Positions 58,956 to 63,806 of a DNA stretch of 64,000 bases are shown one piece after another. Every line of letters starts with the position of its first letter. The stretch's first letter is position 1. Source of the stretch: Deinococcales bacterium (GTDB lineage Bacteria > Deinococcota > Deinococci > Deinococcales > JAAFIG01); assembly GCA_043778225.1 (NCBI GenBank), contig JAYWGM010000101.1, forward strand, positions 74,760 to 138,759, read 5' to 3'. The notes under the pieces are model-generated. The model was not told the DNA's origin. It made no database searches and saw nothing but the letters and a program-made list of their open reading frames with translations. The translations under genes were made by a program, and so were the position numbers.

Positions 58956-59006
58956 GCTTTTTAGGTCTAGCCACCAATCGCTTTTTAGGTCTAGCCACCA
59001 ATCGCT
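58956..59006. repeat. 24-bp tandem duplication between convergent stop codons
   Basis: GCTTTTTAGGTCTAGCCACCAATC x2; includes the moaA stop. Confidence 0.9.
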
Positions 59007-60083: not shown

Positions 60084-60231
60084 GGAACATTGGGGTATTG
60101 TTTCGTAATGGCATCGGCTCGCTCGAGGTCAAGGTCATCAAAAATCAAAGTCGGCAATTCTTTATTCGCTAAACTGCTCATAAAAGCCCGAGCCGCAAAT
60201 GCACCAATGTACTTGGTTGCAAGGTAATCCA
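60084..60231 (-). pseudogene. Internal fragment of a PIN/VapC toxin gene (diverged copy of 62401-62549)
   Basis: Collinear nucleotide match by eye to the PIN gene, with scattered substitutions. Confidence 0.85.
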
Positions 60232-60311
60232 CTCGAGAATATCAGAGGTACAAATGCCAGTGCCAGTTTAGCAAGGGTTCTCGAGGTGGCAAGGGTGCTG
60301 CCACAAGATAG
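60232..60311 (+). repeat. TA-array delimiter repeat, copy R1
   Basis: Core GCCAGTGCCAGTTTAGCAAGGGTTCTCGAGGTGGCAAGGGTG...CACAAGATAG. Confidence 0.9.
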
Positions 60312-60404
60312 TTTTGTTTACTCGAGAACCCACGTACACGCACATATTCGAGAATTCTTAGCTTGCCATTGACAATTTATCGTAACAACAATATCATTGT
60401 CATT

Positions 60405-60860
60405 ATGATTCCAAAGTTCACCAAAACAGGTTTATTACCCGCAGGTGAACACATAGCAACTTGGGAAGAAATTGTTGCCCATTACGGAACAAATTCACAC
60501 CGGTTACGATTACTCGCAGGATTATTTGAAGCTCTCCTTGCACTCCGAACTGCTAAAAGCCAATGGATACTCATTAACGGCAGTTTTGTAACCGATAAAG
60601 AATTCCCAAATGATATTGATGCCTGTTACGACGACCAAAACCTTGATTACGACTTACTCGAGCAACTTGAACCCAGCTTACTAGAATTTGACAATGCCAG
60701 AGCCGCCCAAAAAGCCAGATTCGGTTGTGAATTCTTCCCCGCTCGAGCCGTAGCCGATAGCGCAGGTAAAACCTTCCAGCACTTTTTTCAATTTGACCGT
60801 TATAACCAAGCCAAAGGCATTATTAAACTCGAGCTAAACCAACAAGGAGGCAACCCATGA
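60405..60860 (+). CDS. DUF6932-like putative nucleotidyltransferase
   Basis: G.LP.G.H..TW.E, NGSFVT.K..PNDID, KGII.L; TTGACA-17-TATCAT 7 nt before ATG (leaderless). Confidence 0.7.
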   Translation: MIPKFTKTGLLPAGEHIATWEEIVAHYGTNSHRLRLLAGLFEALLALRTAKSQWILINGSFVTDKEFPNDIDACYDDQNLDYDLLEQLEPSLLEFDNARAAQKARFGCEFFPARAVADSAGKTFQHFFQFDRYNQAKGIIKLELNQQGGNP

Positions 60861-61252
60861 TTCAGAACGAATTGCAATACCGAGTCACAAAAACCAGATT
60901 GCGTGAATTTCAAGAAACCCAAAATAATCTTGAACAAGACGGCATCAAAGGCAAAGCACTTGAGGTGCGGCGCAAAGCAGTCGCCAGCATGATTGCCGAA
61001 CTGAGCCTTTCACTGGAGGCATTCCAAGCCACTAAAACCCAAGGTATTCCAAACACCTTGCTGAGTCTCGAGCAAATACCAGACGACCTGATTAAAGCCA
61101 GAATAGCGGCTGGATTAACCCAAGCCAGTCTTGCCAAAACCCTGCACTTAAAACCACAGCAGATTCAAAGGTACGAAGCCACCAAGTACGCCAGTGCCAG
61201 TTTAGCAAGGGTTCTCGAGGTGGCAAGGGTGTTGCAAAATGCCACAAGATAG
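60857..61252 (+). CDS. XRE-family HTH protein
   Basis: MIQNE.QY..T; LIKARIAAGLTQ..LA..L....QQIQRYEA..Y.SASL; GGAGG RBS and ATGA coupling. Confidence 0.88.
   Translation: MIQNELQYRVTKTRLREFQETQNNLEQDGIKGKALEVRRKAVASMIAELSLSLEAFQATKTQGIPNTLLSLEQIPDDLIKARIAAGLTQASLAKTLHLKPQQIQRYEATKYASASLARVLEVARVLQNATR
61170..61252 (+). repeat. TA-array delimiter repeat, copy R2 (the coding 3' end of the HTH gene)
   Basis: Same core as R1, R3 and R4; encodes YEATKYASASLARVLEVARVLQNATR*. Confidence 0.9.
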
Positions 61253-62177: not shown

Positions 62178-62231
62178 AGTTTAGCAAGAGTTCTCGAGGC
62201 GGCGAGGGTACTGCAAAATGCCATAAGATAA
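62178..62231 (+). repeat. TA-array delimiter repeat, copy R3
   Basis: AGTTTAGCAAGAGTTCTCGAGGCGGCGAGGGTACTGCAAAATGCCATAAGATAA. Confidence 0.85.
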
Positions 62232-62267: not shown

Positions 62268-62656
62268 CTAAGGCAGTAAATTAAAATGCGTGAAACCTTG
62301 TGGTTTGACCAAAGAAAAATGCCTACGGTCAAATGTCAAAATGCTTTGGATTTTATGGCGTTCGGCTAATGCCATCACGCTTGCGTCCACAAAACTAAGT
62401 GGAACACTGGGGTATTGTTTCATAATGGCATTGGCTCGCTCGAGGTCAAGGTCATCGAAAATGAAAGTTGGTAATTCTTTATTTGCTAAACTGCTCATAA
62501 AAGCCCGAGCCGCAAATGCACCCATGTATTTGGTTGCAAGGTAATCTACCTCGGGCAGTATGGTCATAGGCACAATCAGGTTTTCATTTCAAAATGATGC
62601 ACGTCTTTTTTGTTCAAAATAGCCAGTACCGCGTTTGTGTCGAGTAAAATATTCAT
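62268..62656 (-). pseudogene. PIN/VapC toxin, frameshifted
   Basis: ATG at 62656 gives MNILLDTNAVLAILNKKDVHHFEMKT*; another frame continues ENLIVPMTILPE...SFVDAS...TFDRRHF; the 389-nt span is not a multiple of 3. Confidence 0.85.
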
Positions 62657-62897: not shown

Positions 62898-62985
62898 CTC
62901 GAGAATATCAGAGGTGCGAAGCCACAAAGTACGCCAGTGCCAGTTTAGCAAGGGTTCTCGAGGTGGTAAGGGTTTTACAAGATAG
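62898..62985 (+). repeat. TA-array delimiter repeat, copy R4
   Basis: CTCGAGAATATCAGAGG...GCCAGTGCCAGTTTAGCAAGGGTTCTCGAGGTGG...ACAAGATAG. Confidence 0.9.
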
Positions 62986-63041
62986 GGCGAAATGATTTTT
63001 AAGAAGCGCTAAAGAACATTTGTTTTGTGCTATACTGTTCG

Positions 63042-63180
63042 TATCGCGGTCGAACCCAGAGTTGCTGCAAGGCAGAACACTTCGACGCTCGCCCCCCGCC
63101 TTTATTGGTGGTCGGGTTTCTAGCCAGGACTGGAATACAAAAAGAAGCAGGGGGAAAAGCAGCCTTTTGGGTTGCTTTTT
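63042..63180 (+). ncRNA. Candidate structured small RNA convergent with the 182-aa gene
   Basis: Extended -10 TGcTATACT (63028-63036); nested stems GTCGAA/TTCGAC, CTGC/GCAG, CCGCC/GGTGG; terminator AAAAGCAGCC/GGTTGCTTTT. Confidence 0.6.
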
Positions 63181-63182
63181 CG

Positions 63183-63731
63183 TTAATACCTTTTGTGAAT
63201 GCGTTTACCTTGATTGGTTGCGTGAAGCAGCTTGAAAAAACCAAAATGGTTGGTGCGGTCTAATTTAGGGCGTTCGTTGCTGTTGGGGTCACGTTCATAG
63301 GCACTTTTGATGATGAGTACAGTCTGTCGTTTGACTTTCACCATATCAAAAAAGATGTCATATTCAACTTTTTGATTCTGCACATCCAGCAACTCGAGGC
63401 GAAAGTACGCACCATCTGGTAGGACATAGAATCGTTTGTTGCTCTCGTCAAATGCTCGGATTAAGTCAGGCAGCAATTTGGAAAGTTCCCATCGTTTTTG
63501 GTTAAAGTACCTATTTTTGATGCCTTCTCGAGAATGGGTTTTGCTGTAGATTGGCATGTTATCTTCGTTGCTTGAATCGGTGAATGTGTGGTCAGTAAAT
63601 GTCACCAAGACCAAGAAGTGTTTTGCAGTAGCGGTTGCTATGGCGATTTGCACAAAAGTATGTTCAAAATCATCCAAATGCGAGAGGTTAAAAACTTGAC
63701 TTTTGTGGGCGTAGGGTGTCCACCTTGTCAT
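63183..63731 (-). CDS. Hypothetical protein, possible RNase-type toxin
   Basis: 182 aa; NLSHL, V.F.DHTFT, R.F...RWELSK.LP, Y.IFF and L.IKSAY motifs; TA-island context. Confidence 0.6.
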   Translation of the reverse strand: MTRWTPYAHKSQVFNLSHLDDFEHTFVQIAIATATAKHFLVLVTFTDHTFTDSSNEDNMPIYSKTHSREGIKNRYFNQKRWELSKLLPDLIRAFDESNKRFYVLPDGAYFRLELLDVQNQKVEYDIFFDMVKVKRQTVLIIKSAYERDPNSNERPKLDRTNHFGFFKLLHATNQGKRIHKRY

Positions 63732-63752
63732 TCATTTCACGCTACTCATAAA

Positions 63753-63806
63753 GCCAGTATAGCCAAAAATGAGGTGGCAAGAGTGCTACAAAATGCTTCA
63801 AAGTAA
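63753..63806 (+). repeat. TA-array delimiter repeat, degenerate copy R5
   Basis: GCCAGTATAGC...GAGGTGGCAAGAGTGCTACAAAATGC...AAGTAA; CTCGAG lost. Confidence 0.65.

Follow-up and report, generated by a model that had tools for sequence, protein, structure and literature searches.

The 64,000-nucleotide stretch of Deinococcales DNA analyzed here (contig JAYWGM010000101.1, positions 74,760 to 138,759; hereafter the window) contains an array of toxin-antitoxin (TA) cassettes that reaches the end of the contig. One slot of this array is occupied by a single protein gene and a predicted small RNA (sRNA) that faces it. The protein gene is a 182-aa open reading frame (ORF) on the minus strand at 63183-63731, assigned by family comparison to the YjaZ family (PF27200), with an isoelectric point (pI) of 9.44. 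The predicted sRNA of ~140 nt, read from the plus strand at 63042-63180, would run toward this ORF without overlapping the coding sequence (CDS), and its segment is richer in G+C (53.2%, compared with 41.9% for the ORF). Our results show that this protein-RNA gene pair is real and widely conserved. Very probably, it is a two-gene module in which a YjaZ-family gene is accompanied by a convergent sRNA with its own promoter and a terminator that abuts the stop codon.

On the plus strand, an extended -10 promoter, TGTGCTATACT, lies at 63026-63036 and includes the TGcTATACT box at 63028-63036. The structured RNA body downstream of it matches our covariance model R1, described below, at 63042-63158 (42.2 bits, E 6e-7). 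In the predicted fold, the outer helix P1 (63049-63086) pairs GTCGAA at 63049-63054 with TTCGAC at 63081-63086 and encloses P1a, formed by GTTGCTGC at 63061-63068 and GCAGAAC at 63072-63078. A CCC in the internal loop of P1 (63055-63057) is the proposed 5′ strand of a pseudoknot, whose partner would be a GGG within 63150-63154. A conserved CGCC linker then leads into the P2 hairpin (63093-63116), in which CCGCC at 63096-63100 pairs with GGTGG at 63107-63111 and which carries a CCC/GGG closure. The conserved core GGTTTCTAGCCAGGACTGGAATA at 63115-63137 contains P3, a TTCTAG/CTGGAA hairpin (63118-63123 with 63130-63135). It is followed, within 63141-63154, by an AAGAG-type motif that is nearly invariant in the alignment and reads AAAGAAG in the window, and then by GGGGG at 63150-63154, the 3′ strand of the pseudoknot. 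The last element is a terminator hairpin at 63155-63180, with an A-run before it and a T-run after it, ending 2 nt from the stop codon at 63183-63185; read in reverse, this hairpin probably terminates the protein mRNA too. A likely promoter of the protein gene, TGGCTATACT, was inferred from the sequence at 63751-63760 on the minus strand, and the same box precedes the neighboring cassettes (repeat D8, inverted repeat I10). The repeat search of the window gave no direct repeats within 63028-63180, and the tRNA/tmRNA search returned none.

A preliminary description of this locus had proposed a new protein-toxin/RNA-antitoxin system. The promoter, the GTCGAA/TTCGAC and CCGCC/GGTGG helices, the terminator, its 2-nt spacing from the stop codon, and the higher G+C content of the RNA segment were all described correctly there. 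Two other pairings have to be given up. The CCCCC/GGGGG helix is not conserved elsewhere, and the comparison instead pairs the GGG of 63150-63154 with the CCC at 63055-63057; the CCAG/CTGG pseudoknot found no support in the comparative data.

The R1 model was built from 25 aligned facing segments (alignment A4) and a hand-written structure comprising P1, P1a, P2, and P3. It gave one match in the 64-kb window and two in the 4.03-Mb genome at E<1e-3, each beside a paralogue of the ORF. We collected 18 genome loci with a 13-sequence protein alignment, and in all 18 the strand opposite the gene carried, directly after the stop codon, a hairpin-ended, RNA-like segment that was R1-positive. These loci belong to Deinococcales (Deinococcota), Acidobacteriota, Gammaproteobacteria, one Binataceae metagenome-assembled genome (MAG), and one Methylophilaceae MAG. 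R1 was likewise positive at 24 of 28 further Deinococcota loci, at 56 of 74 metagenome loci, and on two of the three small plasmids examined. Among the four Deinococcota misses, two were weak matches once the filters were off (21.6 and 12.7 bits), one had a flank of 155 nt, and one was locus L046. The 18 metagenome misses comprised four loci without flanking DNA, one doubtful protein match, and 13 loci that, by eye, carry a different facing hairpin-ended segment; nine of these 13 share one third RNA variant with the same order of elements. In 46 of 46 loci, 18-66 nt separate the end of the RNA model from the stop codon. Among intact genes with sufficient flank (L046 left out), none was seen that lacked a facing hairpin-ended segment. 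A conserved structured RNA, for which the preliminary description proposed to test the 3′ flanks of homologues, is present beside the homologous genes in more than 100 loci, and it covaries. Three loci (L017, L060, and L063) come from one genome; they account for one of the 18 genome loci, one of the 25 R1 seed rows, and two of the 62 metagenome-search hits, and they were excluded from the final covariation count. The 17-mer at the center of the conserved core also occurs in three other Deinococcales loci.

The third RNA variant was observed at L126, L132, L135-L137, L139, and L141-L144, beside more distant YjaZ relatives. In this variant, the AAGAGGTTCGCC tail and a GGCG of the first loop are complementary, and there is an extra hairpin. 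These loci include one IMG/VR contig with ParA/ParB.

To describe the RNA structure, we used a model-fitted alignment of 82 R1 hits, 81 of them distinct. Across the 81 distinct sequences, 86.6% of the paired cells were filled by pairs, compared with 66.4±0.8% in shuffles, and the covariation score over the four helices was 0.562, compared with 0.226±0.010 in shuffled alignments (0 of 500 as high). The score fell to 0.038-0.122 when the partners were slid by 1-3 columns. Two-sided changes were found in 16 of the 20 pairs. P1 was 96.1% paired with two-sided changes in five of its six pairs, P3 showed such changes in five of six, and P2 (helix 3) was 84.8% paired with a closing C-G that is invariant (81/81). 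RNAalifold, run on a plain MAFFT alignment not fitted to the model, found P1 with six of seven pairs compensated and recovered no other helix; the remaining helices rest on the hand-written structure string and the model-fitted alignments. Because P1 of the window sits slightly out of register in the model alignment, its coordinates were taken from the sequence and the fold. G-U pairs are numerous in the helices of the model-fitted alignment, and the RNA strand is therefore the one opposite the gene.

The internal loop of P1, which follows a UAUR motif, is complementary to the tail that follows AAGAG, and differently so in each clade: CCC/GGG, GCUGAA/UUCAGC, GGGUG/CACCC, ACCGAA/UUCGGU, CGGUG/UACCG, and GUGC/GCGC. 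The longest cognate loop-tail helix averages 4.05, compared with 3.49±0.09 when the tails are swapped (79 sequences; 0 of 1000). On the basis of this clade-specific complementarity and the tail-swap test, we propose a pseudoknot between the two segments, which these data support. Since the CGCC linker stays constant elsewhere while the tail covaries with the P1 loop, it is that loop with which the tail would pair.

The ends of the element are also recurrent features. Of 79 distinct RNA hits, 56 are preceded by a TANNNT box whose end lies 3-14 nt before the hit, compared with 19-21 of 79 in slid controls, and a strict terminator rule is satisfied in 55 of 80 RNA hits. Together with one model match per module and the covariation, this -10 enrichment agrees with the earlier view of a single-copy, structured RNA that has its own promoter and lies outside the CDS. 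Neither the window RNA nor 15 related loci matched any Rfam family at E<=1, sroH (RF00372) included; the scan gave local sub-threshold matches only, one c-di-GMP-I-like (inside a helix-turn-helix (HTH) gene) and one GP20-b-like. Judged by this comparison of sequences, the window RNA belongs to a large class of RNAs not modeled in Rfam.

The source genome itself contains two further members of the protein family. A protein search of its assembly identified a paralogue on contig C1 with 32-34% identity, and a DNA search with the RNA segment gave a 31-nt match directly beside it. The RNA of this paralogue has the identical promoter 11-mer and shares all 23 nt of the core GGTTTCTAGCCAGGACTGGAATA, and its terminator lies against the stop codon; the helices between these elements differ in sequence, and its fold has a z of -3.12. 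The third paralogue, on contig C14, encodes 174 aa and shares 42% identity with E. coli YjaZ (E 6e-39). It is faced by an RNA of another sequence type, with a TTGACA-17-TATACT promoter and a terminator, which scores 55.2 bits (E 4.6e-11) with the Rfam sroH model and so lies below the gathering threshold of 80 bits. This RNA and sroH share long identical blocks with compensated helices in between.

The protein of the window is, by sequence, a member of the YjaZ family. All seven close homologues carry the precomputed PF27200.1 assignment, the nearest ESM Atlas clusters are 98-100% PF27200 and are named YjaZ or "heat shock protein C," and a BLASTP comparison with E. coli YjaZ gave 26% identity (E 5e-6). 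Pfam hmmscan (in a release without the PF27200 model) and NCBIfam left the protein unmatched, and a PDB sequence-profile search gave nothing meaningful. At E<=1e-3, a library clustered at 50% identity contains 201 representatives of the family, almost all of which are ~180 aa long and stand alone. It is a basic family, with a median pI of 9.36 and a pI >8 in 92% of members. H18, H48, S84, and Y124 are invariant, and R74 and R80 are near-invariant.

An AlphaFold2 model of the protein is confident (predicted local distance difference test (pLDDT) 89.6, predicted template modeling score (pTM) 0.86) and shows a soluble-looking globular protein of mixed sheet and helix. The best match of a wide structural search was RelE (2khe), a weak one (Z 4.5, root-mean-square deviation (rmsd) 3.1, 78 aligned), and 21 of the 22 top rows of this search are TA or contact-dependent inhibition (CDI) toxins by title. 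The model thus suggests a weak resemblance to RelE/ParE/BECR-type toxins, the only fold resemblance seen. The HTFT and IKSAY motifs had been read earlier as a hint of a BECR RNase. That hint survives in part, in that H48, F50, T51, S143, and A144 are conserved positions and the predicted fold is weakly toxin-like (Z<=4.5); a profile match to go with it was not found.

The locus has a counterpart in E. coli K-12, where yjaZ (4189786-4190325, plus strand) is followed 1 nt later by the noncoding RNA (ncRNA) gene sroH (4190327-4190487, minus strand), reportedly first described in a 2003 RNomics screen. The two loci share the protein family PF27200 and an RNA encoded opposite the gene under a promoter of its own, with a terminator 1-2 nt from the stop codon. 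A stem around a hairpin, a CGC-type linker, a hairpin ending in AGG-UC, and GAAUACCA(A)GAG occur in sroH in the same order as in the window RNA; sroH differs in a larger P3 loop and in a local hairpin that takes the place of the window-type pseudoknot tail. E. coli sroH scores 201.1 bits with RF00372, whereas R1 matches neither it nor the RNA of the C14 paralogue. Since RF00372 does not detect the window RNA and R1 does not detect sroH, we consider the window RNA a separate, unmodeled type with the same genomic role, and it shares with sroH its position, convergent on and abutting the stop codon of a yjaZ-family gene. The window holds a distant version of the yjaZ-sroH pair, and the shared order of sequence elements makes a common descent of the two RNAs plausible. 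Of 5426 complete E. coli genomes, 3741 contain the yjaZ-sroH stretch, and in 3722 of these a single place accounts for at least 80% of it. The name yjaZ is also borne by a Bacillus gene.

In the literature, yjaZ is listed as uncharacterized and its htrC designation as retracted (PMC11551758), the function of SroH is termed unknown (PMC5389530), and SroH is called "under-characterized," with one in vitro target, kbl (PMC6172242). In the literature searched, beyond which lay most subscription papers and all supplements, no paper linked YjaZ with SroH, PF27200 went unmentioned, no functional study of yjaZ appeared among the titles listed, and nothing was devoted to SroH. As far as searched, therefore, what is new is the pair as a conserved module, along with the structure of its RNA, how widely it occurs, and the possibility that it is a TA system. 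The earlier claim of a new system is right about a real and largely unrecognized module and goes too far where a precedent exists, namely E. coli yjaZ with its convergent sroH.

The family is patchy, with members in 26 of the 364 Deinococcota genomes and in six of the 400 Gammaproteobacteria genomes sampled, and it is often multi-copy, with a maximum of five matches in one genome. Twenty-eight plasmid records hold the gene, some of them just 9.5-13 kb long, and on one IMG/VR contig a relative adjoins ParA/ParB genes. At least 14 of 33 loci have mobility, TA, or defense neighbors within 1.2-1.5 kb (integrase, recombinase, ParA/ParB, DnaD-like, YafQ/RelB, ParE, AbiEii-like, Cas3/Csy1, and Schlafen); some of the remaining loci lie among housekeeping genes. 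In one metagenome contig (L102, 160-2878), the YjaZ/RNA module sits between a Cas3 C-terminal-domain gene and Csy1 in a type I-F-like CRISPR-Cas locus.

An R1 scan of 151 Deinococcales genomes gave 27 places, of which 20 lie beside a YjaZ match, one lies 1 kb from a stop-bearing copy, and six have no YjaZ match. Five of these six gene-less places were inspected; one still has the final 39 codons of the gene, and the other four have none of it. Gene copies with stops or frameshifts retain the RNA as well (G131:C205, G049:C93, and G086:C257). An 11.8-kb contig (G134:C292; loci L048 and L148) carries three R1-type RNAs, at 2361, 5331, and 7217, and the middle one alone adjoins a YjaZ gene, itself truncated. 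A small gene pair (~56-104 aa and 73 aa) was also seen with an R1-type RNA at L002 (989-1388) and L146 (807-1352); the YjaZ gene adjoins it in only one of the two genomes, and the RNA has opposite orientations in the two, an arrangement that suggests cassette shuffling.

Within the array of the window, the other cassettes are gene pairs (DUF6932 with HTH, a 149-aa ORF with HTH, and PIN with a 77-aa ORF), which bears out the contrast first drawn between these two-protein neighbors and the single-ORF cassette. A junction repeat occurs five times (60231-60317, 61165-61251, 62178-62230, 62908-62994, and 63771-63801; 53-87 nt) and marks every array junction. The copy at 62908-62994 on the plus strand (families D2-D4) flanks the YjaZ/RNA module on its RNA side, and the partial copy at 63771-63801 on the same strand (family D4) flanks it on its protein side. 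One copy forms the 3′ end of an HTH antitoxin gene (60857-61252), and the genome has additional copies on its contigs C87 and, close to the start, C94. The segments 60084-60232 and 62401-62549 are a 149-nt duplication with 93% identity, and at the array start, adjoining moaA, the 5′ part of the PIN toxin gene is partially repeated. The DUF6932 protein of the first cassette (60363-60860) matches the PADLOC candidate defense family PDC-M63A (E 5.8e-16). Elsewhere in the window, a perfect 24-nt tandem duplication at 58956-59003 (family D7) lies between 4-alpha-glucanotransferase-like and MoaA-like genes and is overlain by the sub-threshold GP20-b-like Rfam match. The palindrome CTCGAG has 399 copies in the 64 kb, compared with ~15 expected from base composition, and recurs in many of the repeat and inverted-repeat matches of the window; its abundance recalls that of the HIP1 palindrome of cyanobacteria.

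As to function, we tentatively favor a putative type III-like toxin/RNA-antitoxin or addiction module whose single-copy RNA is made from its own promoter, a reading to which we give somewhat less than even credence. We favor it because the RNA outlasts the decaying gene, the module is found on plasmids, in islands, and in one slot of a TA array, and the protein fold is weakly toxin-like. The RNA would act without base-pairing to a target mRNA. It may adopt a compact shape made of P1 with the inner P1a, P2, P3, and the pseudoknot between the P1 loop and the tail after AAGAG, and in this folded form it would bind the basic protein with its RelE-like core and hold it inactive. If the RNA is short-lived, the protein would be set free once the RNA is gone, be it by loss of the plasmid, shut-off of transcription, or attack by phage, and might then cleave RNA and stop growth. 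With more reserve, we suggest that YjaZ proteins and convergent SroH-like RNAs could together constitute a new multi-phylum TA class in which the RNA binds a putative RelE-fold RNase.

Such a module would resemble the type III TA systems ToxIN, CptIN, and TenpIN in its putative RNase toxin, neutralized by a bound pseudoknotted RNA, and in its plasmid and defense-island context. The RNAs of those systems are tandem repeats that lie upstream, are co-directional with the toxin gene, and are cut by the toxin, whereas here one R1 match per module lies downstream on the opposite strand under its own promoter; known type III toxins are also missing from the best 50 rows of the structural search. With the RelE/ParE/BECR toxins (RelE, HigB, BrnT, YoeB, YafQ, and CdiA-CT), the modeled protein shares an order of strand, two helices, three strands, and helix, together with conserved His, Arg, and Tyr residues, and its residues 39-156 align with whole RelE-type chains. 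The differences are a Z of 3-4.5 only, the lack of a sequence-profile match, a size twice that of the RelE-type toxins with an extra N-terminal sheet, and a partner that is an RNA rather than a protein antitoxin.

Several observations weigh against the TA reading. An E. coli sroH deletion mutant exists and is merely sensitive to envelope stress (PMC5389530); a viable deletion fits poorly with an antitoxin that restrains a potent toxin. Of the 5426 complete E. coli genomes, 1685 lack the yjaZ-sroH islet, figures that agree with a table in PMC3318445, in which sroH is entered as lost in several lineages. The gene was found in none of the phage records searched, and the family was not found in PADLOC or PHROGs. 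At E<=1, Pfam toxin families, including those of RelE/ParE type, match none of 76 members. Foldseek against the PDB returned nothing at E<=0.001 (the best match was HigB2 at E 0.075), and no chain reached Z>=5 in the wide structural search, so that the fold match is weak. The single-copy RNA is itself unlike the tandem-repeat, toxin-cut antitoxins of type III, and loci with the RNA only would suit an RNA that works alone, too. Taken by itself, the window RNA has an unremarkable fold energy relative to shuffles (z -1.48), and the case therefore rests on comparison. Finally, alignments A5 and A6 were fitted to the model structure and are biased toward pairing, a bias that is tempered by the slid control and by RNAalifold on the unfitted alignment.

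The main rival to the TA reading is a dedicated, non-toxic ribonucleoprotein (RNP) with a role in stress, in which the RNA would be the working part, an obligatory cofactor, or a scaffold and the protein a chaperone, processing enzyme, or effector. The coupling, the covariation, and the basic protein fit it as well as they fit a TA module, and RNA-only loci would be expected if the RNA acts alone. E. coli also tolerates the loss of sroH with an envelope-stress phenotype only (PMC5389530; a table of PMC11228462 has the entry "cell envelope stress"), the islet is dispensable there, and certain loci lie amid housekeeping genes. The Ro (Rsr)/Y RNA pair of Deinococcus offers a likeness, being a protein gene with an adjacent structured ncRNA gene that yields a non-toxic RNP; its protein and RNA are unrelated to those studied here, and we know of no mobile-element or TA context for it. 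It is such a context that speaks against a plain RNP: the module is enriched on small plasmids, near integrases and TA/defense genes, and inside a TA cassette array, its distribution is patchy and multi-copy, its protein copies decay, and its fold resembles toxins alone. On balance, we consider this explanation somewhat less probable than the TA reading.

Less probable again is a type I-like or antisense arrangement, in which the RNA would regulate the gene at the 3′ end common to both, whether by transcriptional interference, RNase III cleavage, or pairing of read-through transcripts, and would not bind the protein. The convergent layout, with a bidirectional terminator abutting the stop codon in 46 of 46 loci, would suit it, and in the type I systems TxpA/RatA and BsrG/SR4 a convergent RNA gene likewise lies at the 3′ end of the toxin gene; several Bacillus type I pairs overlap at their 3′ ends. 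Here there is no CDS overlap, though the shared terminator or read-through transcripts may provide some pairing, and the protein, at 182 aa, with a confident globular model and a pI of 9.44, is soluble-looking and unlike a small hydrophobic membrane peptide. Trans-antisense action on the start region of the mRNA was considered and rejected: across 46 loci, the RNA showed no preferred complementarity to its own mRNA (cognate -32.58, non-cognate -32.41 kcal/mol; rank 0.506). The four helices, the pseudoknot, and the unpaired motifs are kept across phyla, with covariation maintaining the RNA shape, and antisense pairing needs none of these. The conserved three-dimensional fold, the absence of CDS overlap, and the lack of a start-region preference thus argue against antisense and for a folded RNA acting on a basic protein. 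That the two genes have no functional link, the segment being a structured terminator or an unrelated sRNA in chance company, is close to refuted and highly improbable. The unremarkable fold energy of the window RNA would agree with it. Against it, pairing is kept between paralogues with 32-34% identity and across at least five bacterial lineages, the RNA has its own promoter, covariation reaches far past the terminator, G-U pairs place the RNA on the strand opposite the gene, and in E. coli the corresponding RNA has an ncRNA gene annotation of its own.

In E. coli, yjaZ and sroH have been adjacent and without a function for decades, and there is now evidence that they are one conserved protein-RNA unit, which spans Deinococcota, Acidobacteriota, Proteobacteria, and plasmids. 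The fold of its RNA is maintained by compensatory changes, and the bulk of the RNA diversity lies outside Rfam models. If the RNA is not an antitoxin, the unit would still be a new and widespread bacterial RNP. If it is one, the module would represent a new RNA-based architecture of toxin control and a new type of partner for RelE-like toxins, and two orphan E. coli genes, yjaZ and sroH, would gain a function.

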